From a virus, in IMG/VR virus record IMGVR_UViG_3300021493_000001: 64,000 bases of DNA; one strand, written 5' to 3'. The notes beneath the pieces were generated by a model, which saw nothing but the letters and a program-made list of their open reading frames with translations, did no database searches and had not been told where the DNA came from. The stretch's first letter is position 1, and every line of letters begins with the position of its first letter. Made by a program: the position numbers and the translations under genes. Shown in pieces: positions 2,426 to 28,625 of this stretch.

Positions 2426-2474
2426 CAGCTTTTAAGTGTTCTACTATGTGCTTCTTATGGAGGGATAGAAAATC

Positions 2475-2750: not shown

Positions 2751-2773
2751 ATTTGTGTTGGCACTATTTAGCA

Positions 2774-4059: not shown

Positions 4060-4063
4060 GTAA

Positions 4064-4777: not shown

Positions 4778-4778
4778 T

Positions 4779-5303
4779 TTAAACCTCCTTAACTAATGGA
4801 TTGGCAGTGGATTTTAAGCGGTTTTCCGCACCAATCCAATGAGGCAATCCTGCCTTTTCTTCAATTGTTCTTTTGGTTTCTATGTTTAGGTATGTAGCCC
4901 ATTGGACAATAATTCGTTTCGCTACATGAAAAATAAAGCCTTTTGGATTTCTAAATTGCTTCCAATATTCTCTATTACGAGAATAAAGGAAATCCAAAAT
5001 ATAATCTACTAATTCAACTTGAGTTAATCTTGGTAAACCTAGAATAGATGCCCATCTTTCAACCATATTTGGGATTTCTTTGTATAAAAGATGCGCATCA
5101 ACTCCTATTTGATATTCCCAAATAGGAAATACTTTTCGGTGTTTCATATTCTTTTTATTTCCTACTTTTTCGCTATATCCATCTCCTTTTTTTAAAATTC
5201 TATATGCTACTCCTTTGTGGACACCAAGTATTTTACCTATTTGGGCAAAGGTCAGTCCTGCATCCCTTAGTTTTTTTACATCGTTGTATTCTATTTTTTC
5301 CAT
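4779..5303 (-). CDS. HTH DNA-binding protein with a possible sigma-region-2-like C-terminal part
   Basis: LRDAGLTFAQIGKILGVHKGVAYRILK helix-turn-helix. Confidence 0.65.
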   Translation of the reverse strand: MEKIEYNDVKKLRDAGLTFAQIGKILGVHKGVAYRILKKGDGYSEKVGNKKNMKHRKVFPIWEYQIGVDAHLLYKEIPNMVERWASILGLPRLTQVELVDYILDFLYSRNREYWKQFRNPKGFIFHVAKRIIVQWATYLNIETKRTIEEKAGLPHWIGAENRLKSTANPLVKEV

Positions 5304-5312
5304 TGCTTCCTC

Positions 5313-5807
5313 CTAATACCATCGGATTATTGTTGATGTTCTGGAAGAGATTGGACTATTAGCATTATTTGGGCATTGGCTATAATAGGTGACATTAGGA
5401 TGATTAGGGCAATAATTTTTATAAAATGGGTGTTTATCATACCATTGTGCAATATTTTTGGACCTTAAATATTCTCCACAAATAAAACAATAAAATTCTT
5501 GTGTATTCCAAGAAGGCTCAAACGGACGAATGACCAATACTTTGTCACTAAATTCAGCGAAAATATGGCAATTTCTACAAACAAAAATTTCTTTATCATT
5601 GGGAAGTCCGATAGGTGCTGGAATCCTTTTTATCTTTGCTGTATATATCACAGCAGGCTTTTTACAGCTAGGGCATTTTATATTACGCCCGTCTTTGAGT
5701 AGATATTCACCTTCTACTATTTGGTTATTATAATAAAATGGTAGTTCTAGTTCTACAAAAAATTTTCCTTTTGCTAACATAACCTTAATTTTCTTTACTC
5801 CATCCAT
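5313..5807 (-). CDS. Cys-rich zinc-binding hypothetical protein
   Basis: CPSC, CRNC, CFIC, CP motifs; GGAGG upstream. Confidence 0.65.
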   Translation of the reverse strand: MDGVKKIKVMLAKGKFFVELELPFYYNNQIVEGEYLLKDGRNIKCPSCKKPAVIYTAKIKRIPAPIGLPNDKEIFVCRNCHIFAEFSDKVLVIRPFEPSWNTQEFYCFICGEYLRSKNIAQWYDKHPFYKNYCPNHPNVTYYSQCPNNANSPISSRTSTIIRWY

Positions 5808-5837
5808 GATAACCTCCTTTTCACAAACAATTTAGTC

Positions 5838-6089
5838 TTATGGCCTATCCCATAACCAGTTTAGCCATTCTTGTTCATTGCTATTAAACACGGGACAACA
5901 ACTATTATATCTACAAATGCTACAAGGCCAACCGCCCATTATGAGTTCAAGTTGTTTTTCTTTTGGTGCAGTAGCAAATGCTAATAATTCTTTTTCTTCA
6001 TCAACTTTAAACAAGCCGGGTTGTTTAATAAAACATTCCCTAAACTTTTTAGTTTTTTGAATTAAATAAAGAGCATCTTTTTTATTCAT
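5838..6089 (-). CDS. Hypothetical protein
   Basis: GGAGG ribosome-binding site; packed in operon. Confidence 0.65.
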   Translation of the reverse strand: MNKKDALYLIQKTKKFRECFIKQPGLFKVDEEKELLAFATAPKEKQLELIMGGWPCSICRYNSCCPVFNSNEQEWLNWLWDRP

Positions 6090-6100
6090 TTTAATCCCTC

Positions 6101-6295
6101 CTATTTTAGTTCGTCCTCTGCACTATTAACTTCCATAATTTTGTCATGGATACGTTCACAGTAACAGCGTCCCTCTTCGTCTAGCCCAGAATTACAACAA
6201 GGAGAAAAACAACCCTGACAGTTTTCACAGGTAGGATTGAGGTAAGGGCATTTACCCTCTTGTATTTCTTGCCATAATTTTTCTATTTCTACCAT
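6101..6295 (-). CDS. Small Cys-rich hypothetical protein
   Basis: Eight Cys; GGAGG upstream. Confidence 0.6.
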   Translation of the reverse strand: MVEIEKLWQEIQEGKCPYLNPTCENCQGCFSPCCNSGLDEEGRCYCERIHDKIMEVNSAEDELK

Positions 6296-6321
6296 TTTTC
6301 TTTACCTCCGTTTATTATTAT

Positions 6322-6513
6322 TTATGGTTCTGAAGGATAAGTTAAGCCCACTTGAATTGCATCCTCTAACGCTTCAAACATATCTGGGTCATCTAGGTCT
6401 TCAACTATGAATTTGCTCAAGGCAATTCTAGCCTGCCTTCCTGATAATTTGCCTACCAATTCAAGTAATTTTTCTTTATGTTCTTTTGTTATGTCTTGCT
6501 TTGTTTCCCTCAT
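6322..6513 (-). CDS. Hypothetical protein
   Basis: Likely start MRETK at 6513 after GGAGG; the ORF-track start lies inside a terminator. Confidence 0.6.
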   Translation of the reverse strand: MRETKQDITKEHKEKLLELVGKLSGRQARIALSKFIVEDLDDPDMFEALEDAIQVGLTYPSEP

Positions 6514-6529
6514 CTTTTTTGCCTCCTTC

Positions 6530-6569
6530 AAAATAAAAAAGCCCGATGTTCCAAAAAGGAACACCGAGC
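6530..6569 (-). terminator. Rho-independent terminator
   Basis: 12-bp stem GCTCGGTGTTCC/GGAACATCGGGC followed by TTTTTTATTTT. Confidence 0.8.
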
Positions 6570-6597
6570 CTTTAAGTTAGGGTGGGTGTTTAAATTG

Positions 6598-7017
6598 CTA
6601 TTCTATATTCAGTGCTTGTTTAATCTTTTCAATCTTTTCTGCCTCTTCCTCAAATGTTTTCATTTTTGAGATATTTTCAAGAAATTCCTCAAGTGCAATA
6701 CTAGCGTCTTTTACATTTATATAAGTAAAATCAATAACATCTACAGGCACAACCCAGCCTAATGTTTCTACTACTGCTTTACCGTTTTTGAGTGCAAAAT
6801 CAACCGAGCCTCCACAATTACGTTGCCAGTTATGCCCATCCCAGTAATCATATTTGACAGTAAATTTTTGTTTAGTCTCATATCCCGTGACAGCGTCAGG
6901 CACTTGCTTTGATATCCAATCCAATATAACTTGTATATCCTCTTTCGCCTTCTGCGTAGCCCTTTCCCTCTTTTTCATCCGTTCAACGATGCTTACTATT
7001 TTTTGTATTTCTTTCAT
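6598..7017 (-). CDS. Hypothetical protein
   Basis: GGAGG ribosome-binding site; coiled-coil ends. Confidence 0.7.
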   Translation of the reverse strand: MKEIQKIVSIVERMKKRERATQKAKEDIQVILDWISKQVPDAVTGYETKQKFTVKYDYWDGHNWQRNCGGSVDFALKNGKAVVETLGWVVPVDVIDFTYINVKDASIALEEFLENISKMKTFEEEAEKIEKIKQALNIE

Positions 7018-7019
7018 TT

Positions 7020-7196
7020 TTACTTACCTCCTTTCAATAATTTCTCCGTCACCCGCTCAGCACCGATTAAGTGCCGGCGGAGAGTGGCCATTTCAGCCTG
7101 CAATTTAGCAAGGCATTGAGGGCATATACCGTGTGTAGTGCCCTCGCCTTGCTTTGTGCCCATTACTTTCTTGCACCATGCACACACTATTTGCAT
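7020..7196 (-). CDS. Small zinc-binding protein (CAWC...HGICPxC)
   Basis: Start MQIVCAWC after AGGAGGTGA. Confidence 0.7.
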   Translation of the reverse strand: MQIVCAWCKKVMGTKQGEGTTHGICPQCLAKLQAEMATLRRHLIGAERVTEKLLKGGK

Positions 7197-7216
7197 GACA
7201 TCACCTCCTTTCCTCC

Positions 7217-7265
7217 AAAATAAAAAAGGCCGAGCCAACAGGCGTTAAGCCTGTCAAACTCGGCC
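7217..7265 (-). terminator. Rho-independent terminator
   Basis: GGCCGAG...ACAGGC/GCCTGT...CTCGGCC followed by TTTTTTATTTT. Confidence 0.8.
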
Positions 7266-7296
7266 TTGCGTTGCTTAAAGCGGTGCAGTGCCGTTT

Positions 7297-7755
7297 CTAG
7301 TCTATTTTTACACCCAGTTGCTTTGCAACACTGAGAATTGTCTCAGCATTGCTTTTACGGAGGACATCCTCTACTCTTCGTCTTACTTTTTTAACTTTTT
7401 CAATCTCTCTTTTTTCTTCTTCAATCTTCCTAATAGCTTCTCTAACTTTCTCGGCAAACTCATTAGCCTTTTTCTCGGAAGAGAATTCACCAGAATACAT
7501 GTAGTAATCATCAGAACGAGTGCAATCAAGAAAGTGCTCATCTGGGCAGAACCCGTAATCCCGCAACCCCAATGCCTCGTTCAATTCATGAGAAGTAAAA
7601 GGTAATTGAACCGTGCCCCATCCTTCAGGATGTTTAGCCTCATTAACTTTCACTTTGTAAACCGTTTCCCCACTTCTATAAGGATTACTGCTAGAACTTA
7701 AAACCACTTCCACCTTAATCCCTTCAAATGTTTTTCCTTTGTTAATCCACCTCAT
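7297..7755 (-). CDS. Hypothetical protein
   Basis: GGAGGAG ribosome-binding site. Confidence 0.7.
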   Translation of the reverse strand: MRWINKGKTFEGIKVEVVLSSSSNPYRSGETVYKVKVNEAKHPEGWGTVQLPFTSHELNEALGLRDYGFCPDEHFLDCTRSDDYYMYSGEFSSEKKANEFAEKVREAIRKIEEEKREIEKVKKVRRRVEDVLRKSNAETILSVAKQLGVKID

Positions 7756-7861
7756 CTTTCTCCTCCTTCCCCTTCCCTTGCCTTTGGCATCGGCTTGGGA
7801 AGGATTGTTTTATTTCCCACCGTTGTTTTATTACCCGCCACGGTAGGCACGGCGGGTTAGG

Positions 7862-8371
7862 TTAATTTATTTTGAAAATTCTCTTTAATCTTAATATAAC
7901 CTCATCATCTAACTTTTTACATAACCAGCTTGACCCATATTTATAATTTCTATCTTCATAAAGACCAATTGATTTTAAATACTCAACTGCTTTATTATAA
8001 TTTTCTGCAAAAAGTAGAGATTTATCAGCTTTTTTTAAAGCTAACATTTGTTTTTTAGTGCCAGGCACGCAATCATTTAAATGCCACTCTTGCCAGATTT
8101 TTAAAAGCTCTTTTAAATTTGTTGGTATATTCCATTCTTGCCCTAGCTTCTTTAAACTCATATCTATTTGCCCGCTACTATTCCATGCAGGGCGTCCTTT
8201 ACCATTATAACTATAATAAAGGTCACCATCTAAAGATAAAACTACAACTTCTTTTTCTTTCAGGTCTTCCCAGTCTTTACCTATGCTTTTTTTAAGCTCA
8301 AGATTAATTACAGCTAAAAAATACCCATTAGACTTTTTGTTTTTGATTTTAAATTTTGTTGAGTATTTCAT
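7862..8371 (-). CDS. Conserved phage hypothetical protein (WxxWHLND motif)
   Basis: IWQEWHLNDCVPGTKKQ...YKYGSSWL. Confidence 0.7.
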   Translation of the reverse strand: MKYSTKFKIKNKKSNGYFLAVINLELKKSIGKDWEDLKEKEVVVLSLDGDLYYSYNGKGRPAWNSSGQIDMSLKKLGQEWNIPTNLKELLKIWQEWHLNDCVPGTKKQMLALKKADKSLLFAENYNKAVEYLKSIGLYEDRNYKYGSSWLCKKLDDEVILRLKRIFKIN

Positions 8372-8607
8372 TTTATCAACCTCCTTTCTTTATTTATTTC
8401 CTTTACTTCTTTACTTAATAATTCATATAAATACCCAAATTTAGGGTGATAATACCGTTGATAAACTCTAACCACTATTTTGGTAGGGTCTATAACTAGC
8501 TTGTGTTTTTCTACCAATTTGCCTCGTTTCTGGAGTAATTTTTTAGCCTTAGCAGGTAAAGTGCTTGTATCTATGATTTGTTTACCACTTGATGGTCTAG
8601 CTCTCAT
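8368..8607 (-). CDS. Basic hypothetical protein
   Basis: Probable start MRARP at 8607 after AAGGAG. Confidence 0.6.
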   Translation of the reverse strand: MRARPSSGKQIIDTSTLPAKAKKLLQKRGKLVEKHKLVIDPTKIVVRVYQRYYHPKFGYLYELLSKEVKEINKERRLIK

Positions 8608-8911
8608 TTCTTTTTTCTCCTTTATATTCAATATTTGCAAAGCAAGGTTTAATATTTTCAATTTCTAATATTCTTGCTTTTATTAGCTCTCCTAAAATTT
8701 CTTTCATTGCTTGAGATGTTAATCTTTGAGGAAACATCCTTGTTGCTATGCCATTAATATGTTCCATTCGTAATACTTTTATTTTAGATAATATTTTAAG
8801 AATAACTGTTTTAAGTTTTTTCTTTTCTTGTGAGTTTAAATTTGTCCATAATAATTCGTTAGAGGTTTCCCCTTTTTGAACCATTTCTTTAATTGTTTCC
8901 CATTGTTTCAT
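8597..8911 (-). CDS. Hypothetical protein, possible winged helix
   Basis: Probable start MKQWE at 8911 after AAGGAG. Confidence 0.55.
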   Translation of the reverse strand: MKQWETIKEMVQKGETSNELLWTNLNSQEKKKLKTVILKILSKIKVLRMEHINGIATRMFPQRLTSQAMKEILGELIKARILEIENIKPCFANIEYKGEKRNES

Positions 8912-14946: not shown

Positions 14947-16509
14947 TTGAGTGATTTAGAGGTGATTGAACTTAATTTTAACAGTAGAGGTTTAGCACCG
15001 TCTTTAAGAAAAATTTTTCAAAAGGACCCATTAATTTTTCCTGAGAAAGTTCTGGGAGTTACTCTTTGGGATAAGCAGAAAGAAATTTTTAGAGCTATCT
15101 ATGAGAATGAACGAGTTGCAGTGCCTGCGTGTAATCATGCAGGCAAAACTCATACCGCTGCATGTCTAACCCTTGCATTTCTTTTTACATATTATCCTTC
15201 TAAAGTTATTACAACTTCAGCATTCAAAGAACAAGTTAAGGATGCATTATGGAGTGAAATCAGAACTAGAGTGAGATATTCAAGAATATCGTTAATGGAA
15301 GAAAAGCATGTAACAACTATGGGAATAAATTTAGGTCCTGATTGGTATGCTGTGGGATTAAGACCTCAAGACTCTTCTCAAGAGGCTTTTCAAGGAAGGC
15401 ATAGTCCGAATATATTATTAATTCTGGATGAATCAAGTGGGGTAGGTGAGAATATTTGGGAATCGGCTGAAGGATTAATGACCTCTGCCAATTGTCATTG
15501 GCTTGCACTAGGCAATCCATTTGACCCACTTTCACCATTTGGAGAAGCTTGTAATAGTGATGAATGGGTAACTATACATATTTCAGCTTATGATACTCCC
15601 AATGTTAAGGCAGGAAGAAATATTTATCCTCGGTTAATGCCTTGGGATTGGCCTGAGAAAAAGAAAAAGCAGTGGGGTGAAGATAGTGCAAGATACCAAA
15701 TTAGAGTTTTAGGCCAATTTCCTGAAAGAGAAGAAGAAAAGTTAATTCCATATTCACTTGCAAAACAAGTATTTGAAAGAAAATATAATCGTTGCACTGA
15801 TGAGACATTGGTAATTGGTCTTGACCCAGCAGGATTAGGAAAAGATAAAACAGTTTGGGTTTTAAGACAAGGCTCATCCATTGTTACAATAAAATGGGTT
15901 TTGAATGCAACTGATGAGGCAATTGGAAGAAGAACTTTAGAATTAGCAGAGACTTATAGAAGTGCTAACAAACCAACGATTATTAATATAGATGGTGGAT
16001 GGGGAAAAGGGATATATGAATATCTCAGAAAACATGGTAATCCTGAAAAAGTGAAGATTAACCTAGTTTTTTTATCTTCTAAACCAGAAAATGATGAAAA
16101 TGAATATTATAATTTGAGAACTCAAGTTGGTTTTAGATTGAAAGAGGCTATAGAAAGAGGATTATGTTTATCTCCATCAGCTAGAATAGTAAAGGATGCT
16201 TGGCTATCTGATATAACTGCTATAAAAGTCATTGAAGACCCTAGAACTGGGAAAAGAAAGTTAGAGAATAAAAGAAAGCTGAAGAAGCGGTTAAAGCGTT
16301 CTCCTGATTTTTTAGATGCTACATTACTTAGCTTTGTTTCAAGTTATAGAACTCCTCCTGCTATGGTAACTGTTTCAGAATTTCAATATAAAGAAGCAAA
16401 TAAAGAAGTGATTGATAATTCTATGTTTCCATCTATGATGCACCAATTCAAGATTAAAAGAAGAAATCCAATATTCTTTTTCAGAAATAATATCAGGAGG
16501 TTCTCATGA
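14947..16509 (+). CDS. terL: Terminase large subunit
   Basis: Walker A ACNHAGKT, Walker B LILDES, ALGNP coupling motif, nuclease GLDPAG and PDFLDA; TTG start. Confidence 0.95.
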   Translation: MSDLEVIELNFNSRGLAPSLRKIFQKDPLIFPEKVLGVTLWDKQKEIFRAIYENERVAVPACNHAGKTHTAACLTLAFLFTYYPSKVITTSAFKEQVKDALWSEIRTRVRYSRISLMEEKHVTTMGINLGPDWYAVGLRPQDSSQEAFQGRHSPNILLILDESSGVGENIWESAEGLMTSANCHWLALGNPFDPLSPFGEACNSDEWVTIHISAYDTPNVKAGRNIYPRLMPWDWPEKKKKQWGEDSARYQIRVLGQFPEREEEKLIPYSLAKQVFERKYNRCTDETLVIGLDPAGLGKDKTVWVLRQGSSIVTIKWVLNATDEAIGRRTLELAETYRSANKPTIINIDGGWGKGIYEYLRKHGNPEKVKINLVFLSSKPENDENEYYNLRTQVGFRLKEAIERGLCLSPSARIVKDAWLSDITAIKVIEDPRTGKRKLENKRKLKKRLKRSPDFLDATLLSFVSSYRTPPAMVTVSEFQYKEANKEVIDNSMFPSMMHQFKIKRRNPIFFFRNNIRRFS

Positions 16510-17046: not shown

Positions 17047-18357
17047 TTGCCATATTTTATCAAAAAACCAAGTCCCAAGCCTGCAAGATTTTTTGAAGCC
17101 ACCAAGCTTTCTTTGCCAGGCGGTGAAGAAACAAAAGAAGAAGATTGGGCTGGGTGGAGAAAAATCTCTGGTGTAGGATTGTTAAGAGAGTTACGCACCG
17201 ATGTATTTGTTAAGATGAGTCGTTTAGCCAAATGGCTTTATGACTCAAACCCCTTAGCCAAAAGGATAATTGAATACATCAAGAACTTTGTGGTAGGAGA
17301 AGGTATTTATTTTGAGACAACCGATAAACGAGTTCAAGAAGTATTAAATGCGTTCTGGTTTGATGATGTAAATAATTGGCCTCTTAAACAGCATGATAGA
17401 ATTTTAGAGTTATGTCTTTATGGTGAGTGTATTTGGCCTGTTACAGTAAACCCTGCTAATGGTCATGTAAGATTAGGATATATTGACCCTTTGGAAGTTA
17501 AAAAGGTTGTGCCTCATGAAGAAAATTGTTTGATTTTGGATAAGATTATTTTGTATGCTCCTCTCAATAAGAAAAACGGTAAAAAAAGAGAACTCAAGAT
17601 AATTCGCAGAGATGAAAATCCAAATAGCGATACTTATGGATACCTAACAGGTGAAACCTTTTTCTTTGCCATTAACAAAGTTTCAAATGCGACAAGAGGT
17701 GCAAGTGATTTGCTACCCTTGATAGATTGGATTGATTCTTATGACCAGTTTTTATTTACAAGACTTGAAAGGCAAATGAATATTAATAATTTCTGCTGGG
17801 ATGTAACTTTAGAGGGTGCAGATGAACATGAAATAAAACAATTCCTTGATAATTTACCACCTCCTTCGCCTGGGACAATCAGAGCACATAACGAGAAAGT
17901 TAAATGGGATGTAGTTGCTCCTAAGCTTGAAGCAAGAGATGCAAATCAAGAAAGCCGTTTGATAAGAAATCATATTCTAAGTGGTGCAGGTTTCCCACCT
18001 TATTATTTTGCAGATACAGAAGGAGTAAGGGCGGTTGCTTATGAGCAGGCTTTTCCTACCGAAAAGATGCTTATTACCAGACAGAAATATTTTAAAGCAA
18101 TGATTGAATATGTATTCAATTTTGTAATAGACCAAGCAATTCTTCATAAAAGATTACCAAGGAATGTTAATCGTAAGTTTGAAATAATTTTTCCTGAAAT
18201 ATCATTAAGAGATATAGAACGGTTGAGTAGAGCATTTAAGAATATCACCTTATCAATAGAGCATTTGAAACAAAATAATTTAATTTCAGATGAAGAAGCT
18301 AAAAAGATTATAAGGAATTTATTGAGCCAGATGGGTGTCAATATTGACAATGAGTGA
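17047..18357 (+). CDS. Portal protein
   Basis: 436 aa after terL; SNPLAKRII...VVGEG, LCLYGE, RGASDL, GAGFPPYYF patterns. Confidence 0.85.
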   Translation: MPYFIKKPSPKPARFFEATKLSLPGGEETKEEDWAGWRKISGVGLLRELRTDVFVKMSRLAKWLYDSNPLAKRIIEYIKNFVVGEGIYFETTDKRVQEVLNAFWFDDVNNWPLKQHDRILELCLYGECIWPVTVNPANGHVRLGYIDPLEVKKVVPHEENCLILDKIILYAPLNKKNGKKRELKIIRRDENPNSDTYGYLTGETFFFAINKVSNATRGASDLLPLIDWIDSYDQFLFTRLERQMNINNFCWDVTLEGADEHEIKQFLDNLPPPSPGTIRAHNEKVKWDVVAPKLEARDANQESRLIRNHILSGAGFPPYYFADTEGVRAVAYEQAFPTEKMLITRQKYFKAMIEYVFNFVIDQAILHKRLPRNVNRKFEIIFPEISLRDIERLSRAFKNITLSIEHLKQNNLISDEEAKKIIRNLLSQMGVNIDNE

Positions 18358-19195
18358 TATGAAAAAGAAATGTAATTATATATTGAGTAAGACTGATAAA
18401 GCAAATATTGTAAAGGAATATTTAAAAGGCTTGAGTTCAACCAAGTTGAGTTTGAAATATAATGTAACTCCATCAGCAATTTTGAGCATTCTCAAAAATA
18501 GAAAGATTAAGAGACGAAATAGGTCGGATGCTGCTCGAAAATTAAGTCTTGATATTAATGCATTTCAGAATTCAAATAATGAAGAAGTTGCTTATTGGGC
18601 TGGATTTCTTTTAGCAGATGGTTCAGTAATTAAGATTGATAATAGTTATCAAATTTCCTTAGTCTTACATCAACGAGATAGAAACCATATTGTAAAATTC
18701 AAAAGATTTTTAAAGTCAGAGCATAAGATTTCGAAAAATCGAGTCTTTTCTGTTTTAAATGTAAGGTCGAGAAAATTAGGATTAGACTTGATTAACTTGG
18801 GAGTTATTCCAAATAAGACTTATAAAGATAGCAAAATTCATAAACAGTTATTAAATAATCGGCATTTTTGGAGAGGAGTGGTAGATGGGGATGGCAGTCT
18901 TTGTTTTTGTAATAAATATCCTGTTTTAAATTTAATGGGAAGAGAGAATTTGCTTCGAGAATTTTTGATGTTTATTCAATATTTCTTTCCAATGATTAAT
19001 ACTAAAATTATACCGATTAAGAATGAAGTTTGCAGAATCTTTTTCCGAGCTAATACAGCAAAAAGGGTTACCTATCTTCTATATCATGAAGCAAATGTAT
19101 TTCTCGATAGAAAAATGGATATGGCATTGAAAATCTTAAATTGGGTAAGTAAGAAAAATCAAAATATGTTACTGAGCCAAATGGCGATGAGATAG
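18335..19195 (+). mobile_element. Free-standing LAGLIDADG homing endonuclease with N-terminal HTH
   Basis: AYWAGFLLADGS and HFWRGVVDGDGS; true start may be 18350. Confidence 0.9.
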
Positions 19196-19216: not shown

Positions 19217-22200
19217 GTGCGTATAACTGAACTTCATTTAGAGCAATTTAAAAAAGAAGGGGTTGATTACGATATTAAACATGCCAAGACCAGATGGAGA
19301 GAATTGCTGGCGGACATTAGGTATCTTTTCAATAATGCTTTACCAAGGATTTGGAAAGGCGAGAAATGGGGTGATTGGCAGGAAGAAGATTGTTTAAGAT
19401 ATGGAGGTAAGATTATAGATGCCCTTCGTTCTGTTTATTTTCCTTTGATACCACCCTCTAAAGATGACCCAAGATATAATACAAGCTACTGGAAGGCTTA
19501 TCGTAAGGCTGAAAAGAAAGGTTATATCAAATCTAAACCACCTAAACTAGAAGAAGTATCTGAATGGGATAAGAAACGCAAAGAGATAATCAAAACCTCT
19601 TTAGAAGAAGCAGAAAGAAAAATAGATGGTCTTTATTTAACTTATCCACATGGAGAGTTATTTTGGACTAAAGAAAAAACTTTGTTAGTGAAGACTAGAA
19701 AGTTTGATTTATCCAAGCCTCACTATCTAATTGATGATGGCTTTTGCTATGGGATTATCTCGTTCAAAGAACCTAAAAGAATTACTAAAAAGCAGTTCTT
19801 TACAGAGGATTTAAAGAAAAAGCATCGCATCCTAGATACAGAAGCTTGGCAGTGGTGGAGAATGTCAAGAGACAATGCAGTTGAGCCTGAACTTTGGGCT
19901 TATGAGGTTAAAAAATTTGAACCGTTTGAAATACCTGAAAGAGTGAAAATACCAAAGGGAACACAGGTTATAGTTGATGCAGATAACATTGAATTTGTAG
20001 GAAAGGATGAAGAACAACCTGCAAGGATTGATTGGCCTATAATGGCTACCAAGGAAGCAAAGACTGATTACATTAAATTCTATGGCACTAAAGGATATAT
20101 AGAAGAAGAAAACAATGAACATAAATATCATACCTGTATTTTGTTATCCTTAAATGACACAAATATCTTATTGGATTATGGTGAGAGGCATCCTGAAGAA
20201 ATAAAGGAAAGAATAGATGTGATATTGAACTCGCATCGGCACATTGACCACATCTGTCCTGAAATATCAAGCTTTGCTTGTCCTTTATATATATCAAAAG
20301 AAACTTTGAATAGAGTGGATTTTTCTTTACCCGAAGATATAAGAATTTATGAAGCTAGAAAAGCATTTAGTATTGGTAATATAAAAATTATTACTTATCC
20401 AGTTTATCACTCCATCCGTGCTCCTATGCACATTTTCAAGATTGAGACAGATAACCTTGCAATTGGAGTAATGACTGATTTTTTAGCCTTTGAAGAAGTA
20501 GAAGATGAAGAGTTTTTCTATCCAAATCTAGACATAGTCATAATAGACGGTAGTAGCATTACGAAAGATTTAAGAAGATGGAAGGAAGACCATAACTTAA
20601 TATTTGGTCATAAAAGCGTAATTCACCAAATTGAAAGAATTAGAGATAGATGTGAAAAAAATCCAATAATAATCCTCACTCATATTGGGCGTGAAGGCAT
20701 AGAGTGGGGAGACTTACAAATATTACAATATTTACATGAAAGATTTGCTGGAATGCACATATATATTGCCAAAGATGGCAGTGTATTTGACTTAAAAACA
20801 AGGCGATTTACTGAGGCATTCAAAGGCGAGCAAATATGCAAAGATATTGTTGCAAATCTTCCTTCTTTTACATGGATACCTGAATTTACAAGCATTACAG
20901 GCTCTACCTTATTTACAAAAGACCATGCACCAAGAGACTTGGATGTAATGTGCAAAGCAGAGGAGATAAATGGAAAGTGGTATATTCCTATAGATACTTC
21001 TCTTTTGCTTAAATTGCAAAGAGCCTATCAATATGCAACAAAGAAAGTCTTAGGCAAGGCAATCAAGCCTGAGTTCCCACCTCCAGCATTGATTGGAGCT
21101 AATTGGAGTTCTATACCTGCTTATGATTTAAAGCTTGTGCCTAGAAAAAATCCAGAAGTAAGAAGGACAGGAGAAGAGGAGTTTGAAGAAAAGGTTTATG
21201 GAGTAGATTTTAAGGAAAAGTTAAGGTTACGCACCAAATCCAAAGATATTGAAAAAATGGCTCAGCAATCCTTAGAAGAGGATAAAGTCAAACCACTTCG
21301 TTTCTTTATGCCTCTTAAACCAATACGAGTTCAAGGAAAGCATGGAGAAAGGAATACACCAGAAAGGCTTGTAGAGTTATTTGAGCCACAGCATTACCCA
21401 GTTTATAACTCGGTAAAGAGAGATGGATTCAGGGTGCAAATTCATGCAGACGGGGATAAAGTTGTAATTTATTCAGAAGATGGCAATGATATAACAAAGC
21501 AATTACCTACAATTGTTGATGCAGTTAAAAGACTTAAAGCAAAATCAGTTGTTTTAGATGCTGAAGTTGAGTTATGGGAGAATGGATATCATCATCCACG
21601 AGAAGCAGCCATTGCTAAAATTCATTCTAAAGCAATAGATGATAAGGATTTGATTGCTAATTTATTTGATTGTATATATCTAAATGGCGAAGATTTGCAT
21701 AAAGAGCCATTTGAAAAGAGATGGAAAGCATCAAATTCTCTTGGCATCAAATATTCAAAAGAAACTAATTTAAACCCAGAAGAAAAACTTAATATTATTC
21801 CCCATATCTTATGCAAAACTCCAAAAGAATTGCTTAGAGAAACAGAACGCATGAGAAAGGTTAAATCAAGTGAAGGCTGTGTAGCTATTGCCCATAATGC
21901 AACCTATCCATTAGATGGCAAACCAGATGACAATTCATTTTGTAAGTTTCACAATAATGTAGTTATAAGGGGAATAGTAATTGAACCTGTGCAGACTAAA
22001 GTAAGCACGGTATATAATTTATCCTTTGGCTGTTTAGCAGGTAAGCATGAAATATTAAAGAAAGACCAGACAGAAGTAGGTCCTTATGAAAAAGTTTTAA
22101 CCATAGGAAGCACTTTTGCTGCACCTTATGTAAAACGAGGTAGTGTAATTGAGGTTGAATGTGAAACAATTAACCATATCATCCATGAAGACATTGAAGG

Positions 22201-24247
22201 CAATCCAGTAGAAATTACAGCTTGGGCACCTAGATTTATGCGGGTAGTGCCAGGGGCTAAACCAGATAGCATAGATGACATTCTTAGAAAAGCTAGAAAA
22301 GAAAATCATGTTTTGCAAGAGAAAATAATCAAATCAGACGGCACAGTAATATATAAGGAAGCAAGAAAAGAGCTTTATTGCTTTCTTACAGAAGAACCCA
22401 CATTAACAAGCAAGATTAGTGATAGATTTGGTGCAGCTAAGTATGCTATATTCTTTGAACCTGCTACTTATCATTTTGAAGCAATAGATTTGTCTAATTT
22501 TGTAACAGGAATTGAAATTACAGATTTAATAAAAGAACGCAGAGCTACAGAAGTTGTTACAAACCAGATAGGAAGATTTAGCAGAGAGGCGTTAGACAAG
22601 GCTGGAATTAAGATTGTTTTTGCCCAAGGAAAGGTTGAGGATTATTTAAATAAAAAACTAGGTGAAAGCCCGCTTTTAAAAGAAGCTATATTAAGAGAGC
22701 AAGACCCGTATATGCAATATTTTGACGAAGATAAAGAGCATAAATTTTGTGCCCAACATCATTACAGGTGTGCTTTGAAAGAAGTTTTAAAAGAAATAGG
22801 AAGAGAAGATTTATGGCCTAGAGAAGAACCGAGTCCAGAGGAATGGGCTAAATTATGGCCTAAGTGGTGGCCTGAAGTAAGAAAGGTATTGGAAGATTAT
22901 TATGATACCCATCCCAATTTTGAACATTCACCTAGTGTCCATTGTGATTTACGCATGGAAACAGATACTAAAGGCGTGTTAATTGGTTTTACTCTTAATG
23001 ACCAAATTAAAGACCGTCCACAATTTTTTCCTTTGAGATTGAGAAAATCTGAAGGTAAATATAGTGCAGAAGAATATGATGATGACCCTGAGAATTGGAA
23101 GATAAATTATAATACTGGTGAGTTTGCTAAAAGAGTTAAAAAGGGAGGAGCTAAAGCACCTGTTTCTTTGATAAGTGAAAGAAAGGCACAAGAACCAAGT
23201 AGTTGGTTAACTTACGAGGGCTTTCAATCTCCGAGAAATGTGGCTGCTACTAGATATGGCTATGCTTTATTGCATTTGATAAGGAAATTGGGCATTGTTG
23301 AGACGGGCATGCAGCTCAATTATTTCCATGAATATTTCTTACATTTCCCCAGAGATGGTAATAAGCCTCCATTTTATTGGAGATTGATGTTTAGGTATTT
23401 AAAGCGTCCTTTTAAGGAAGCAATTGAAAAGCAAGATTATGAAACATTATCAGAGTGTGTATATCTTGAAGATGGTGAGGATTTAGAAGAAGGAATTTAT
23501 TTAGAAGCAGAAAGAATTATACCTGTTTCAGAAGAGGGGTGGGGGCGAAATCAAGCAGGCTGGTTATGTATATATGGAGTTGATAAAACTCCTTACATTA
23601 TTTCAGACCGTGCAGTTAAGTTAAAACGCATGTGCCCTTATCCTTACAGTGCTTTACCTAGATATATCAAAAAACAAATACCGCCTGAGTTTCATTACTG
23701 GAAAGAAAAAGACATGAAAAAACGCATTGAAATAAGGGATGCTTTGGTCAAAGCTATCAAGGAAAAGAAAGTTATTTTGAAAGAAAGCATTGCAAGAGAT
23801 TATATCCTCCAATTGCATTACAGCGAGCCAGCCGAATTAATTAAAAGGAAGTCCCCAGCTCACAAACATTGGGATTTGAGAATTGATGGAGACCTAAAAA
23901 AGAAAACAGGCCATATATTTCATGCAGTTTTAGAATTAAACCCACTTGAAGTTGACTCTACCTCTGCATATTTAAAGAAGTGCAAAGGAGATGAAGGTGG
24001 AGTAAATTGGATGGAAGTTGGCAAAGATAAGACAGTTAAGTTTACTAAAGGATATGGAACATTTGAGAAAAACGAACCTGGGTATGTTAAAGCATTGGAC
24101 TGGGGTAGAGTATTAGTTTTAGAAGACTCACCCTTATTTAAAAAGTTTCAATTTAAAGGCAAACAATTAAAAGGAATTTGGATAATGCATAGAAGTAGTC
24201 CTGAAACTGATATTTGGACTTTTGAGAGGTCAAAGGACATTGGTTAA
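19217..24247 (+). CDS. 1676-aa multi-enzyme: ASCH-like + MBL hydrolase + nucleotidyltransferase + ATP-dependent DNA ligase + NifX-like + two LigD-phosphoesterase-like domains
   Basis: GLYLTYPH...YGII (aa ~136-255); SHRHIDH (339-345); TGS...DLD (561-576); KRDG (734) with DAE, FDC, EG and PRF; DRFG...QIG...GI (1069-1131); QHH...HCDLR and QLH...HWDLR. Confidence 0.85.
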   Translation: MRITELHLEQFKKEGVDYDIKHAKTRWRELLADIRYLFNNALPRIWKGEKWGDWQEEDCLRYGGKIIDALRSVYFPLIPPSKDDPRYNTSYWKAYRKAEKKGYIKSKPPKLEEVSEWDKKRKEIIKTSLEEAERKIDGLYLTYPHGELFWTKEKTLLVKTRKFDLSKPHYLIDDGFCYGIISFKEPKRITKKQFFTEDLKKKHRILDTEAWQWWRMSRDNAVEPELWAYEVKKFEPFEIPERVKIPKGTQVIVDADNIEFVGKDEEQPARIDWPIMATKEAKTDYIKFYGTKGYIEEENNEHKYHTCILLSLNDTNILLDYGERHPEEIKERIDVILNSHRHIDHICPEISSFACPLYISKETLNRVDFSLPEDIRIYEARKAFSIGNIKIITYPVYHSIRAPMHIFKIETDNLAIGVMTDFLAFEEVEDEEFFYPNLDIVIIDGSSITKDLRRWKEDHNLIFGHKSVIHQIERIRDRCEKNPIIILTHIGREGIEWGDLQILQYLHERFAGMHIYIAKDGSVFDLKTRRFTEAFKGEQICKDIVANLPSFTWIPEFTSITGSTLFTKDHAPRDLDVMCKAEEINGKWYIPIDTSLLLKLQRAYQYATKKVLGKAIKPEFPPPALIGANWSSIPAYDLKLVPRKNPEVRRTGEEEFEEKVYGVDFKEKLRLRTKSKDIEKMAQQSLEEDKVKPLRFFMPLKPIRVQGKHGERNTPERLVELFEPQHYPVYNSVKRDGFRVQIHADGDKVVIYSEDGNDITKQLPTIVDAVKRLKAKSVVLDAEVELWENGYHHPREAAIAKIHSKAIDDKDLIANLFDCIYLNGEDLHKEPFEKRWKASNSLGIKYSKETNLNPEEKLNIIPHILCKTPKELLRETERMRKVKSSEGCVAIAHNATYPLDGKPDDNSFCKFHNNVVIRGIVIEPVQTKVSTVYNLSFGCLAGKHEILKKDQTEVGPYEKVLTIGSTFAAPYVKRGSVIEVECETINHIIHEDIEGNPVEITAWAPRFMRVVPGAKPDSIDDILRKARKENHVLQEKIIKSDGTVIYKEARKELYCFLTEEPTLTSKISDRFGAAKYAIFFEPATYHFEAIDLSNFVTGIEITDLIKERRATEVVTNQIGRFSREALDKAGIKIVFAQGKVEDYLNKKLGESPLLKEAILREQDPYMQYFDEDKEHKFCAQHHYRCALKEVLKEIGREDLWPREEPSPEEWAKLWPKWWPEVRKVLEDYYDTHPNFEHSPSVHCDLRMETDTKGVLIGFTLNDQIKDRPQFFPLRLRKSEGKYSAEEYDDDPENWKINYNTGEFAKRVKKGGAKAPVSLISERKAQEPSSWLTYEGFQSPRNVAATRYGYALLHLIRKLGIVETGMQLNYFHEYFLHFPRDGNKPPFYWRLMFRYLKRPFKEAIEKQDYETLSECVYLEDGEDLEEGIYLEAERIIPVSEEGWGRNQAGWLCIYGVDKTPYIISDRAVKLKRMCPYPYSALPRYIKKQIPPEFHYWKEKDMKKRIEIRDALVKAIKEKKVILKESIARDYILQLHYSEPAELIKRKSPAHKHWDLRIDGDLKKKTGHIFHAVLELNPLEVDSTSAYLKKCKGDEGGVNWMEVGKDKTVKFTKGYGTFEKNEPGYVKALDWGRVLVLEDSPLFKKFQFKGKQLKGIWIMHRSSPETDIWTFERSKDIG

Positions 24248-24548: not shown

Positions 24549-26882
24549 ATGGAAAATTTCAAACCAAGTGATTTTTTTGAAACCTTCCAAGGTAAGTTTC
24601 TTCCTTTACTTGAATCGGCCAGAGGTGATGAATGGGATGTTGTTTTAATTGAGGCAGGCCGAAGTAAGGGAGGAAGTCAAGGTCAAATCTTATATCCTGA
24701 AGAAGTCCTGAAAAGAGCAGTTCCTCTTTTTGAGAATGCCAAGTGTTATGCCTTTGAATTTAGTGGTCAAATTTATGACCATCTTCCAGAGAATATCAAA
24801 CAAGCAGTGCCTCAAGGTTTTGCGAAAAATCTTGTAGGTTATTTTACTTCTCCTAAATTAAAGAAACTTCCCAACGGGAAGAAAGGTATAGTTGCAAAAT
24901 TTCATGTCATAGCCGATTGGCTTAAATCTGCCCTTAAAAATGCTGGGAACAAACTACCCGAACTGCTGGGCTTTTCCATAGATGCAGAGGGAATTGTTGA
25001 TAGAAGTCAAGGCATGGCTTTGTCAATTGATAGAGTGGATAGTGTTGATTTAGTTACATATCCAGCAGCAGGAGGCAGATTTTTAAGAATGGTGGCATCT
25101 AGGCTTGCTGCCAGTATTGGAAAGCAAGAAGAGGGGCAAAAAGAAGGATTAAATAGAAAAGGAGGTAACAGCATGAACCCTATGTTACTGGCAATCAAAG
25201 GATGGAAAAGTGGTCTCCAAGAGGGACAAGCGGTAGAAGCTACTGATGATGTAGTTTCTGCAATCTTTGGCAATGTATTGGATGAGGAAATAATAAAAGA
25301 GTCTCGTGACGAATTAAAGGAGATTATTACTCAATGTGTTGGCTTTTTAAGTGAAGGAAAAGAGGAGCTAGCTGAAGCCCTTATTACAGGGATTGTTGAG
25401 GCTAAGAAGAAGAAAAAGAAAAAAGACGAGTATCCTACTCCTGCGGAAAAATATCCAGCACCTCAAAAGGCTTCTACTCAAAACGAGCCTAATGGTGATA
25501 TGGAAGAGGCTAAAAAGAAAAAGAAAGATGAATATCCTGCTTATCCTGAAATTCAGAAACAATCTCAAGACTTAGAAGCTCTCAAAAATGAGATTACCAG
25601 ATTGAAATTAGAAAAATACTTAGAAGAAGCTCTTAAAGAGTCTGGTTTGACCAGTGTATCTAAAGAGCAAATCAGAAACATGCAGTTTAGTTCTACTGAA
25701 GACATAGACAAGGCTATCGGAAATATGAAAGATTTAGAAGCCAAGTTTATGCAGGAAGCTGGAGTTTCAAGCAAGGTTGAAGCGGGCAATACAGAAGGTG
25801 AAAAAGTATTGCAAATGATTGAGGATGTATTAGAGGGTAAATCTCATAGCATCAAAGAGGCTTATATCAGGTTTACTGGTGATAGAAAGGTAACTGGTTT
25901 AATTAAGGAATGTGCAGGAAGGGGTAAAGCAAGGATTACTGAAAGCTTGACAACCTCTGATTGGGCAGAAGCTTTAGGCGATACTTTAAGACGGAAACTT
26001 ATAAAAGAATATAAGGTATCTGGATTAGATGACTGGAAAAAGATAGTATCTGATATTGTGCCTTTACCTGATTTTAGAGACCAGCACTGGATTAGATTAG
26101 GTGGGTATGGTGAGCTTCCTTCTGTATCTCAAGGTTCAACCTACACAGAACTTACCTCGCCAACTGATGAGGAAGTGAAGTTATCCGTAGGTAAATATGG
26201 TGGCCTTGAATCGGTCACACTGGAAATGATAAAGAATGATGACATTCTTGCAGTTAGACAAATCCCTAAACGGTTAGCAAGAGCTGCTGCACAGGCTCTC
26301 TACAATGCCATATTTGATGATATTTTAAAGGATAATGCAACCATTTATGATAATGTTGCTTTATTCCATGCTAGCCATAGTAATTTAGGTTCTACAGCTT
26401 TATCACCAACATCCTTTATGGCAACCAGAAAAGCGATGGGACAGCAGACTGCTTATGGAAATAGTGAGGAGTATTTAAATCTTTATCCTAAATACTTGAT
26501 TGTGCCACTTGACCTTGAAGATACAGCATTTAAGCTCTGTCATTCACCTGTGTTTGTAAACACTGCAACATATTATTCTGGTGGTGGTGCATCAGAAGCT
26601 GCAACTACTCCTAATATTGTGCCTCAGAAATTTAAAACTGATTATATCGTAGTGCCTAGATGGACAGATGCTAATGATTGGATTGCTGTGGCTGACCCGA
26701 ATATGTGTCCTACAATTGTTGTTGGTTTCTTGGATGGCAATGAAGAGCCTGAAATATTTATTCAAGACCAGCCTTCAGTTGGTAGCTTATTCTATGCTGA
26801 TAAAATTGTTTATAAAATCAGGCACATTTGGGGTGTAGCTGTATTTGATTATAGGCCATTTTATAAACATGCTGTAGGTTAA
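24549..26882 (+). CDS. Prohead protease-scaffold-major capsid protein fusion (Mu gpT-like capsid)
   Basis: FSID...DSVDLVTYPAAGGRF protease; charged scaffold; TLEMIKNDD, PKYLIVP, GFLDGNEEPEI...YKIRH capsid motifs. Confidence 0.9.
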   Translation: MENFKPSDFFETFQGKFLPLLESARGDEWDVVLIEAGRSKGGSQGQILYPEEVLKRAVPLFENAKCYAFEFSGQIYDHLPENIKQAVPQGFAKNLVGYFTSPKLKKLPNGKKGIVAKFHVIADWLKSALKNAGNKLPELLGFSIDAEGIVDRSQGMALSIDRVDSVDLVTYPAAGGRFLRMVASRLAASIGKQEEGQKEGLNRKGGNSMNPMLLAIKGWKSGLQEGQAVEATDDVVSAIFGNVLDEEIIKESRDELKEIITQCVGFLSEGKEELAEALITGIVEAKKKKKKKDEYPTPAEKYPAPQKASTQNEPNGDMEEAKKKKKDEYPAYPEIQKQSQDLEALKNEITRLKLEKYLEEALKESGLTSVSKEQIRNMQFSSTEDIDKAIGNMKDLEAKFMQEAGVSSKVEAGNTEGEKVLQMIEDVLEGKSHSIKEAYIRFTGDRKVTGLIKECAGRGKARITESLTTSDWAEALGDTLRRKLIKEYKVSGLDDWKKIVSDIVPLPDFRDQHWIRLGGYGELPSVSQGSTYTELTSPTDEEVKLSVGKYGGLESVTLEMIKNDDILAVRQIPKRLARAAAQALYNAIFDDILKDNATIYDNVALFHASHSNLGSTALSPTSFMATRKAMGQQTAYGNSEEYLNLYPKYLIVPLDLEDTAFKLCHSPVFVNTATYYSGGGASEAATTPNIVPQKFKTDYIVVPRWTDANDWIAVADPNMCPTIVVGFLDGNEEPEIFIQDQPSVGSLFYADKIVYKIRHIWGVAVFDYRPFYKHAVG

Positions 26883-27339: not shown

Positions 27340-27394
27340 AGTAGCCTAGTCTGGACTAATTGGCAAAGACCTCTAATAGCAGAACTAGGCTACT
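27340..27394 (+). repeat. 11-bp perfect inverted repeat with 33-nt loop
   Basis: AGTAGCCTAGT (27340-27350) / ACTAGGCTACT (27384-27394). Confidence 0.7.
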
Positions 27395-27437
27395 TCATAT
27401 AAACCAGGTTGGCTTTTTTAATGGCACTGGTGTGAAA

Positions 27438-28625
27438 ATGAATTTTGAATATATTAACCCTTCTCCAACTCTTTTCATTGTTACTGGATGTCCTCGTTCA
27501 GGAACTACCTTTCTAATTGAACAAATCAAAGAACATCTCAAAGTGCCAGTGTTGGGATATGACGACCTAGGTTTACACAGAGAGTGGAAGACTGCAATAG
27601 CAGCTAATTCCATTCTCTTAGGAGATATATTTGCAGATTTAAAACCAGAAATGCCTAACAATGTTAACATGGAAAAACAATTTGAAGAATTTAAAGAATT
27701 TCTTATATCTAGTAAGGATGAGTTTAGTGAACATCCAATGTATTTTTTTAAAGACCCAAGGATTTGTCACACATGGCCATTCTGGATGAGATTATTTGAA
27801 ATTAGAATTATTCATATAGTTAGAAAATTTGAAGGCGTTTTTAATAGTATTGACCAAGTAGATAATGTTGGTGGCAAAGAGGTTAGATTTAGATGGATTA
27901 AGCCTAAAAATCAATGGAAAGTAATTTGGGAAAATCATGTAAATAAAGCTAGAGAAAGCAATGAATATTTACCTTATTTAGAAATACCATTTGAAAGTTT
28001 TATTGAAAATCCTAAACCTTGGATTGAAAAGATTGCTAACTTTGTTAAAGCTCCTGAAAAATGTTTAAATTTAGGTAGTGGTTTAGCACCAAAAGCAGGA
28101 GAGGAATGGGTGAATTTGGATTACAATGCTGATTATATTCCACCTGCTAAATATGGTGTAAATGGAGTTGTTGCAGATTTGGAAAGTCCATTGCCTTTTA
28201 AAGATAATACCTTTAGTTTTATTCTTGCAAACCATATCCTTGAACATATCAAAAATTATGAACAATTGATGTGTGAGATATATAGAGTATTAAAAATTGG
28301 AGGCAGATTGATAATTAGAGTTCCTTATGCGTTTTGCCGTGCTGCAATAGCTGACCCATCGCATGTAAGACAGTTCGTTCCTGAGTCGTTCTTTCACTTT
28401 TTGCCTGATAATTTAGGGCCAGTTGCAAATCGTAAATTCTGGGGAACGTTTAAGTTAATTGATTTAGAAATAATTAAGCATGACAGACCAGGGATAGATA
28501 GGGGTGAAGTGGGTTCATTTTTCACAGAAATATATGTAGAGTTAGAAAAAATACCAAAGCAAGAGCCACCTAAACCAAAATGGATTGAGAGAGACGATGA
28601 GCAAAGGCAAGGCAATAATATTTAG
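27438..28625 (+). CDS. Sulfotransferase fused to class I SAM-dependent methyltransferase
   Basis: GCPRSGTT and FKDPRI; LNLGSG, DLESPLPF, HILEHI, RVLKIGG; ATG at 27438 preferred over TTG at 27360. Confidence 0.85.
   Translation: MNFEYINPSPTLFIVTGCPRSGTTFLIEQIKEHLKVPVLGYDDLGLHREWKTAIAANSILLGDIFADLKPEMPNNVNMEKQFEEFKEFLISSKDEFSEHPMYFFKDPRICHTWPFWMRLFEIRIIHIVRKFEGVFNSIDQVDNVGGKEVRFRWIKPKNQWKVIWENHVNKARESNEYLPYLEIPFESFIENPKPWIEKIANFVKAPEKCLNLGSGLAPKAGEEWVNLDYNADYIPPAKYGVNGVVADLESPLPFKDNTFSFILANHILEHIKNYEQLMCEIYRVLKIGGRLIIRVPYAFCRAAIADPSHVRQFVPESFFHFLPDNLGPVANRKFWGTFKLIDLEIIKHDRPGIDRGEVGSFFTEIYVELEKIPKQEPPKPKWIERDDEQRQGNNI

Follow-up and report, generated by a model that had tools for sequence, protein, structure and literature searches.

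What is the role of a 1676-residue protein, composed of several putative enzymes, in the head module of a tailed virus? This question is raised by the IMG/VR record IMGVR_UViG_3300021493_000001, a stretch of 64,000 nucleotides (nt) that is referred to here as the window and that represents a segment of a tailed-virus genome. Near-identical DNA is found in hydrothermal-vent and marine-sediment metagenomes from several studies, and the source is an uncultured tailed virus from hydrothermal-vent sediment. The open reading frame (ORF) in question, hereafter the giant ORF, is predicted to encode a DNA ligase, two 3'-phosphoesterase (PE) domains of the type found in LigD, and several additional domains on one chain. 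With a probability of about 0.5, we consider the giant protein to be a DNA heal-and-seal kit that would be packaged in the head and released by a protease, its packaging, cleavage and activities being what we infer from the evidence below.

The giant ORF is uninterrupted over 1676 codons, starts with GTG and is preceded, 9 nt upstream, by the purine-rich sequence GAGGGG. A 95%-identical relative has an ATG at the matching start codon, and full-length homologues with 95%, 77%, 49%, 46% and 38% identity are present in other metagenomes. Because an ORF of this length would not be expected by chance in DNA with 35% G+C, the giant ORF is a real gene. The following parts were distinguished, the confidence of the structural models being given as the predicted local distance difference test (pLDDT).

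19217..24247, + strand: giant ORF, predicted polyprotein of 1676 residues (P0001), from the ORF list, with homologues found
19217..19609, + strand: N-terminal helical domain, Trp-rich, residues 1-131, model pLDDT 85-94 over residues 30-120
19619..19969, + strand: ASCH/PUA-like domain, residues 135-251, Foldseek match to 2dp9 (E 2.6e-6) and VIA Z score of 10.0 to 5guq
20063..20806, + strand: putative metallo-beta-lactamase (MBL)-fold hydrolase, residues 283-530, HxHxDH at 340-345, Pfam PF13483/PF12706 and PHROG 392
20849..21181, + strand: Pol-beta-type nucleotidyltransferase-like domain, residues 545-655, motif conserved in 20-22 of 22 diverse relatives
21284..22336, + strand: predicted ATP-dependent DNA ligase, adenylation and OB domains, residues 690-1040, Pfam PF01068 and archaeal ligases of the PDB
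22400..22663, + strand: NifX/NafY-like domain (Nitro_FeMo-Co, PF02579), about residues 1062-1149, Pfam and PDB 1rdu (E 0.005)
22709..23410, + strand: PE1, LigD-type 3'-phosphoesterase-like domain, residues 1165-1398, profile match to 3p4h (E 5e-5)
23420..23506, + strand: acidic low-confidence spacer, residues 1402-1430, pLDDT below 50 at model residues 243-276
23507..23785, + strand: region termed Mid, residues 1431-1523, strongly conserved across the family
23786..24244, + strand: PE2, predicted LigD 3'-phosphoesterase fold, residues 1524-1676, VIA and Foldseek

With regard to residues 690-1040, profile and motif comparisons confirm the prediction of an ATP-dependent DNA ligase with an OB domain. 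The region scores 73.4 bits against PF01068 (gathering threshold 26.2), and its nearest solved relatives are the archaeal replicative ligases of Thermococcus (E 1e-15), 4eq5 being aligned over residues 694-1024. Motif I, KxDGxR, comprises the nucleophile K734 together with D736, G737 and R739. It is followed by E783 (motif III), F817-D818 (IIIa), E886-G887 (IV) and K910 (V), and the OB domain exhibits motif VI, RFxR, at positions 1006-1009; R1006-F-x-R1009...K1015-x-D1017 is invariant among close relatives. These residues are well conserved in the relatives aligned (K734 in 84/87, E886 in 92/96, G887 in 96/96 and K910 in 93/95). The K-x-H of motif V is normal for the family, the last column being H in 46 and K in 45 of 96 relatives. 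Downstream of the ligase, the NifX-like domain (residues 1064-1146) scores 28.5 bits in Pfam (cut-off 26.3) and 27.6 bits in a homologue from another record (G001, IMGVR_UViG_3300021498_000001).

The C-terminal module consists of PE1, Mid and PE2. PE1 is confirmed as a probable LigD-type PE domain by its profile alignment to 3p4h, which runs through its H-x-D-x-R motif, and by the conservation of that motif. When counted over about 145 distant members among the 150 matches listed, where these are aligned at the columns concerned, H1242, D1244 and R1246 are kept in 120/120, 122/122 and 120/122 relatives, respectively. PE1 carries a helical insertion of about 55 residues and is related to PE2 according to hhalign (80% probability, E 1.3e-5). 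The PE beta-barrel fold predicted for PE2 is confirmed by comparison of the structural model of residues 1158-1676, which was built on a 35-sequence alignment (pLDDT 85). With VIA, the last 153 residues could be superposed on all solved LigD phosphoesterases, with Z scores of 15.7 to 3p43 (root-mean-square deviation (rmsd) 2.1 Å over 120 residues), 14.9 to 3p4h, 13.2 to 3n9b and 12.2 to 5dmp, with rmsd values of 2.1-2.4 Å for the first three, and all top seven Foldseek matches are LigD PE domains. The PE2 triad H1551, D1553 and R1555 is aligned to 3p4h and 3p43 by HMMER and is only 32-59% conserved family-wide. Judged by eye alone, the counterparts of Tyr88 and of the second-shell catalytic His84 of Pseudomonas LigD may be substituted. 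Pfam LigD_N (PF13298) gave no match at E<=1 in the giant protein. The relatives with listed scores reach 24.8, 24.5 and 18.3 bits against a threshold of 31.1 and are thus sub-threshold, the best relative having an E-value of 7.3e-9. The only PDB sequence matches of the C-terminal profile are stand-alone archaeal PE proteins. Between the two PE domains, Mid exhibits the conserved residues W1449, P1459-Y, S1478, P1481, W1495 and R1507, and the acidic spacer that precedes it is flanked by the motifs FKEA and YLEA.

The N-terminal half is more heterogeneous. For the helical domain, neither a PDB sequence search nor a fold search (Z below 5, helical background) gave a relative. The ASCH fold is most similar to ZmASCH (5guq, VIA Z 10.0) and YqfB (9kyf, Z 9.4), with many other ASCH entries also matched, and the Pfam search of the giant protein gave no match to ASCH (PF04266). 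The MBL domain scores 27.2 bits against Lactamase_B_3 (PF13483; cut-off 24) and carries the full set of metal-binding motifs, namely H340-x-H342-x-D344-H345 and downstream H, D and H residues that are invariant in the alignment of relatives. Its best PDB profile match is 7t28, a generic metal hydrolase (E 1.2e-4), and it weakly resembles RNase Z, RNase J and CPSF. The nucleotidyltransferase is assigned at the motif level only. The signature hG[GS]-x9-13-Dh[DE]h is present in the giant protein, and among 22 diverse relatives G562 and D574 are found in 22/22 and S563 and D576 in 20/22, the D576 column being Glu in the remaining two. K599, R602, G627 and D637 are near-invariant, D637 (20/22) being a candidate for the third acidic residue. 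The relative P0092 matches DUF6932 at 5e-4 and DNA_pol_B_palm at 0.06; a DUF6932 scan of one relative's genome found nothing, and an IMG/VR search with the nucleotidyltransferase alignment retrieved close relatives only.

A preliminary description of this locus had listed these domains, from the N-terminal domain to the two PE domains, on one uninterrupted ORF. Its ORF is borne out by the start site of the 95%-identical relative and the full-length homologues, and Pfam, PDB, fold and profile comparisons agree with the order given for the N-domain, ASCH, MBL, ligase/OB, NifX-like and PE domains. The Pol-beta nucleotidyltransferase of that description is upheld by motif conservation but not by any fold or profile match. 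The divergence that it noted in the ligase holds for motif IV, which is weighed below, but not for motif V. Its suggestion that the MBL domain is similar to Apyc1, an enzyme degrading signalling nucleotides, is barely supported: the PDB profile search gave E-values of 0.066 (7u2r) and 0.27 (7u2s) for Apyc1 chains, confined to the N-terminal generic HxHxDH region, versus 1.2e-4 for 7t28. Both Mid and the helical insertion of PE1 were missing from it.

The description had also not recognised the architecture as a characterised one. A profile of residues 1158-1676 (PE1-Mid-PE2) retrieved 926 clusters (50% identity) at E<=1e-3 and 237 at E<=1e-30. Upstream domains were counted in 159 collected sequences, comprising the top profile matches and other proteins gathered during the analysis. 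The ligase adenylation domain is directly upstream in 100 of them, and ASCH is found in 36, the nucleotidyltransferase in 27, the N-terminal helical domain in 22, MBL in 18 and the NifX-like domain in 8. The full nine-part chain is limited to 6-8 close relatives. From these counts, ligase-PE1-Mid-PE2 is the core of the family and the giant protein its most decorated form, with the MBL and NifX-like domains as accessories rather than parts of the core. Other relatives carry, as accessory domains, Dam and C5 DNA methylases, a pyrimidine-dimer glycosylase and 2H phosphoesterases.

Inteins are found in this family at two sites of predicted catalytic importance. P0004, which is 94% identical, contains an intein inside the MBL motif (HxH|xDH). 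The homologue in G001 (L019:3550-9660) contains a LAGLIDADG intein, with Cys...Asn|Ser boundaries, between W630 and S631, which interrupts the GxNW motif of the nucleotidyltransferase. Further intein or homing-endonuclease domains are present in other relatives. Inteins usually sit in functionally important sites, and their placement fits a functional importance of the MBL and nucleotidyltransferase motifs.

The position of the gene is the next clue to its function. The neighbouring genes are the following.

14947-16509, + strand: large terminase (TerL), from the gene order in the window
17047..18357, + strand: portal protein, upstream of the giant ORF, PHROG 10963 (E 1e-39)
18335..19195, + strand: free-standing LAGLIDADG homing endonuclease, between portal and giant gene, PHROG 4645 and Pfam LAGLIDADG_3
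24549..26882, + strand: protease-scaffold-major capsid fusion of 777 residues, PHROGs and Pfam Phage_capsid_4 at residues 453-773

The preliminary description had placed the giant ORF between the portal and prohead protease genes. The head module is correct, but the LAGLIDADG gene intervenes and the protease is part of a fusion with scaffold and capsid protein. The LAGLIDADG gene overlaps the 3' end of the portal gene; it is absent from the 95%-identical relative L002, where the portal gene overlaps the start of the giant gene. Taken together, the inteins and the free endonuclease gene at 18335-19195 point to frequent movement of homing elements into this part of the genome. The scaffold part of the capsid precursor exhibits a KKKKKKK run and a second KKKKK block, which flank a stretch found only in the virus of the window and in L002.

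In every context with readable neighbours, the gene is located in the head module, mostly directly after the portal gene. The order TerL-portal-giant-capsid is observed in L002, L005, L006 and G001/L019, and the gene of the 38%-identical P0009 is also in a head module. In L007, the gene after a Pfam-confirmed portal encodes MBL and ligase, and the next one fuses the PE module to Peptidase_S78; one stand-alone PE module directly precedes S78 protease and capsid genes. For P0099, a TerL-like gene and a gene of 486 residues come first, then the ligase-PE gene, and last a gene that weakly matches families of head cement (decoration) proteins. In ANMV-1 (L001, KP703175), the product of 1913-3193 is annotated as a MutT-like phage hydrolase but is most probably the portal protein, given its match to Phage_portal_3 (E 3e-22); this gene ends 7 nt before the ligase-PE gene.

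Some members of the family are covalently linked to head proteases. At least 100 residues follow the PE module in 53 of 154 members, and of the 41 such extensions that were scanned, 24 contain Peptidase_S78_2 and one contains S78. A predicted prohead-protease fusion is therefore present in at least 25 of the 154 members. Head proteases do their work within the procapsid, which makes these fusions the best of the indirect arguments for packaging. As a side observation, the cultured Rhizobium phages RHph_TM16 and RHph_Y1_11 have an annotated "DNA methyltransferase/prohead protease" fusion, and they may serve as a culturable model of a head protease with tethered enzyme cargo.

The linkers between the domains also suggest cleavage. 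The prohead proteases of T4, phiKZ and SPN3US all cleave after Glu (PMC5694885). The motif tested here was h-x-E-[A/S], defined as [LIVMFYT]-x-E-[AS]. Ten copies are present in the giant protein, of which nine lie within seven of the eight inter-domain linkers (binomial 7e-8, for linker limits that were set after the sequence was seen), and none of 5000 composition-preserving shuffles matched this placement. A conservation-based test, which is independent of these limits, shows that all ten motifs fall within the third of the protein with the lowest conservation (Mann-Whitney 2e-4). The linker sites are retained in 8/8 cases in P0003 and in 6/8 cases in the 49%-identical P0006 (P 2e-4). The sole linker without the motif separates the nucleotidyltransferase from the ligase, so that these two would remain one 515-residue product. 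The same motif is found in the capsid precursor, within S-[IL]-[KR]-E-A-Y-I-R at residues 434-441. This sequence lies 12 residues ahead of the start of the capsid fold and shows no variation among four relatives; a second invariant motif, [IFY]-[VL]-E-A-[KR], is located further upstream. In the 46%-identical L006, the gene consists of two ORFs of 1336 and 249 residues (4045-8055 and 8043-8792) with a 13-nt overlap, and the apparent split point corresponds to the PE1/Mid boundary, where the giant protein has FKEA and the disordered spacer. The placement of the motifs fits a protease-cut polyprotein. The preliminary idea of a virion-delivered toolkit thus gains from the head-module position, the protease fusions of relatives and the cleavage-type motif at domain boundaries, all of which are indirect.

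Based on these observations, a beads-on-a-string precursor of nucleic-acid end-processing enzymes would be made late with the head proteins and taken into the procapsid. The capsid protease would cut after Glu in the h-x-E|[A/S] linkers, yielding about eight pieces, with the nucleotidyltransferase and the ligase still joined. The PE domains would clean 3' ends by removing 3'-phosphates or ribonucleotides, the nucleotidyltransferase would add nucleotides, and the ligase would then seal. As a result, linear genome ends could be joined, or nicks and breaks caused by the environment or by host nucleases could be repaired. Such a kit would follow the POL-PE-LIG logic of LigD, with a Pol-beta-fold transferase in place of the primase-polymerase. 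More tentatively, many uncultured tailed viruses of both archaea and bacteria may carry an in-capsid end-joining kit that would heal and circularise the entering genome at once or repair damage acquired outside, for which a pre-adenylated ligase could dispense with ATP. With regard to hosts, the best TerL match of the window is a Methanosarcinales virus (32% identity), with bacterial phages close behind, and the head module of this nearest TerL relative, vir525, contains no such gene. The contig of P0009 carries a bacterial-looking SLT lytic transglycosylase, and ANMV-1 is archaeal.

The proposed kit can be compared with several known systems. Bacterial LigD comprises POL, PE and LIG domains and acts with Ku in non-homologous end joining (NHEJ), and PE structures are available (3n9b, 3n9d and 2lj6). 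Like LigD, the giant protein combines a ligase core, a PE of the same fold (Z 13.2 to 3n9b, with H-x-D-x-R) and a nucleotide-adding module in one chain, and the same logic of adding, trimming and sealing is expected. In contrast to LigD, a small domain with a Pol-beta-type motif stands where the primase-polymerase would be, and no match to LigD_Prim-Pol or another archaeo-eukaryotic primase (AEP) was found in the giant protein. The giant protein also differs in having two PE domains, Mid, the 55-residue insertion of PE1 and four extra domains, and in being encoded in a viral head module. The stand-alone archaeal PE proteins (3p43, 3p4h and 5dmp) are the best structural matches of PE2, at 20-23% identity. 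Whereas these are single-domain cellular proteins of about 120-170 residues, the fold is duplicated and decorated in the predicted viral polyprotein.

Among viruses, the closest annotated counterpart is AJP62006.1 of ANMV-1, a virus of ANME-1 archaea, which is annotated only as an ATP-dependent DNA ligase. This 866-residue protein corresponds to the ligase-PE core, with 26-28% identity over ligase and PE, and lacks the N-terminal helical, ASCH, MBL and NifX-like domains. ANMV-1 is also the only one of 50,697 deposited phage genomes in which the ligase-PE module was found. In the literature searched on the module, only the ligases of the magrovirus structural module touch on this family: groups A and B encode an ATP-dependent DNA ligase in that module (Philosof et al. 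2017, PMC5434244), which also holds a LAGLIDADG homing endonuclease, as here. That paper gives no function, PE domains, protease fusions or multi-enzyme chain for the ligase, and the possible likeness to the giant protein is drawn from the published description. Searches on the ANMV-1 ligase, on LigD phosphoesterase in viral capsids and on archaeal Caudoviricetes ligase/portal returned nothing relevant. The architecture is not an orphan, since its ligase-PE core belongs to a large viral family. This family is uncharacterised and almost absent from cultured phages. New features described here are a single chain of nine domains, two sites of intein insertion, a statistically supported linker code that recurs at the predicted capsid maturation site, and an apparent natural split of the gene.

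The delivery mode proposed for the giant protein is that of the internal proteins and Alt of T4, of Dar of P1 and of the ejection proteins of phiKZ and SPN3US. Enzymes taken up by the prohead are cut after Glu by the head protease and leave the head together with the DNA (PMC5694885). None of these cargoes is a ligase, PE or nucleotidyltransferase set, and none shows sequence similarity to the giant protein. The MuF or SPP1 gp7 slot invoked in the preliminary description agrees with the position of the gene right after the portal, but this slot is all that is in common, and Pfam Phage_Mu_F gave no match at E<=1 in the giant protein.

Several observations weigh against a packaged and cleaved repair kit. 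The case for packaging is built on gene position and on fusions in other viruses, whereas in the virus of the window the protease is fused to the capsid protein and not to the giant protein, for which no capsid-targeting signal was identified. With regard to cleavage, besides the retrospective choice of linker limits, only 2/8 linker sites are retained in P0008 and in P0009. In the wider family, the motif occurs at 0.89 versus 0.61 per 100 residues, equal to the reversed control motif; because this is no enrichment, the motif claim is limited to the clade of the giant protein. With regard to the enzymes, the lysine of ligase motif IV, which is K in 88/95 relatives, is replaced by I891, and Pfam, NCBIfam, PDB profile and protein-atlas feature searches with the nucleotidyltransferase of the giant protein were all empty. 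Ku (PF02735) gave no match at E<=1 in the records of three relatives, which are 50-88% complete, the window itself not being scanned.

Part of this evidence could also be accounted for by other functions. A location between portal and capsid genes would lead to late co-expression of an enzyme that stays in the cytoplasm, may dock at the portal or terminase, and repairs replicated concatemers for packaging by the terminase. Ligase, PE and nucleotidyltransferase suit the repair of nicks and gaps, T4 needs ligase for efficient packaging, and the missing protease fusion in the giant protein itself is in line with such quality control. We nevertheless consider it rather unlikely, because no fewer than 25 members of the family are covalent fusions with prohead proteases, which work inside the procapsid, because the linkers share their motif with the predicted maturation site of the capsid protein, and because an enzyme of the cytoplasm would not have to be encoded after the portal gene in viruses that are only very distantly related. 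Alternatively, the substrate could be RNA: in a tRNA repair kit countering anticodon nucleases or RNA-cutting defence effectors, PE would remove 2',3'-cyclic phosphates or 3'-phosphates, a CCA-like activity would rebuild 3' ends, the ligase would seal, and the RNase Z/J-like MBL and ASCH would handle RNA. ASCH relatives include the ribonuclease ZmASCH and the RNA-base amidohydrolase YqfB, RNase Z, RNase J and CPSF are weakly similar to the MBL domain, a few relatives have 2H/LigT phosphoesterase or weak RNA_ligase matches, and the PE of Pseudomonas LigD acts on 3'-ribonucleotide ends. This RNA repair function seems improbable. With its OB domain and motif VI, the ligase is a member of the DNA ligase family, and the solved structures closest to it are those of archaeal replicative DNA ligases; a place in the head module, moreover, has no obvious tie to tRNA repair. 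Since the accessory domains of relatives are mostly DNA-specific (Dam, C5 methylase and pyrimidine-dimer glycosylase), DNA is the more probable substrate.

An injected counter-defence set, in which an Apyc1-like MBL phosphodiesterase would degrade signal nucleotides and the repair domains would undo defence nicks, is likewise improbable. The Apyc1 chains at E 0.066 and 0.27, together with a faint Pfam match to Anti-Pycsar_Apyc1 in P0008 alone, would point in this direction, and the intein in its catalytic motif suggests that the MBL domain matters. However, the similarity does not extend beyond the generic HxHxDH region. The domain, found in only 18/159 family members and degenerate in P0009, is an accessory, and no defence context is known for the host. 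The degenerate MBL of P0009, the limited conservation of the PE2 triad (32-59%) and the atypical motif IV of the giant protein could also be taken as signs of a structural or scaffolding head protein in which the enzyme-like domains are non-catalytic relics. This is very hard to reconcile with the 90-100% conservation, in distant relatives, of the PE1 H/D/R residues, the ligase residues of motifs I, III, IV and V and the G-S/D-x-D of the nucleotidyltransferase, or with inteins in two catalytic motifs, and we regard it as highly unlikely.

Apart from the genes discussed above, three features of the window were recorded.

27360-28625, + strand: sulfotransferase-methyltransferase fusion just after the capsid gene, Pfam Sulfotransfer_3 and Methyltransf_11
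52958-53611, + strand: calcineurin-like metallophosphoesterase, Pfam Metallophos (E 3e-7)
62138-63175, - strand: 345-residue ORF with a Cas12f1-like TNB domain (TnpB-like), E 1e-13

The sulfotransferase-methyltransferase fusion stands among virion genes, with the tail genes next, and is kept in L002. The metallophosphoesterase gene is the end of the rightward late block and is followed by a switch of strand and GC skew near 54 kb. The ORF at 62138-63175 suggests that the viral genome carries an IS200/IS605-type element or encodes an RNA-guided nuclease.

If the heal-and-seal kit proposed here is packaged, it would be a new class of phage-head cargo, namely a ligase-based kit for repair or end joining. 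It would then be the first virion-borne DNA ligase or NHEJ-like system, with the 1676-residue protein as its most elaborate single-chain form. Packaging would also account for an oddity that was pointed out in 2017 without an explanation, namely that abundant marine archaeal viruses have a "second ligase" in their structural module. The predicted protease code h-x-E|A is directly testable, the two intein points mark functionally important residues, and the chain offers compact and probably thermostable ligase, phosphoesterase and transferase modules. As the family is large yet almost absent from cultured phages, it marks a step in the infection cycle of vent and sediment viruses that is widespread but unstudied.

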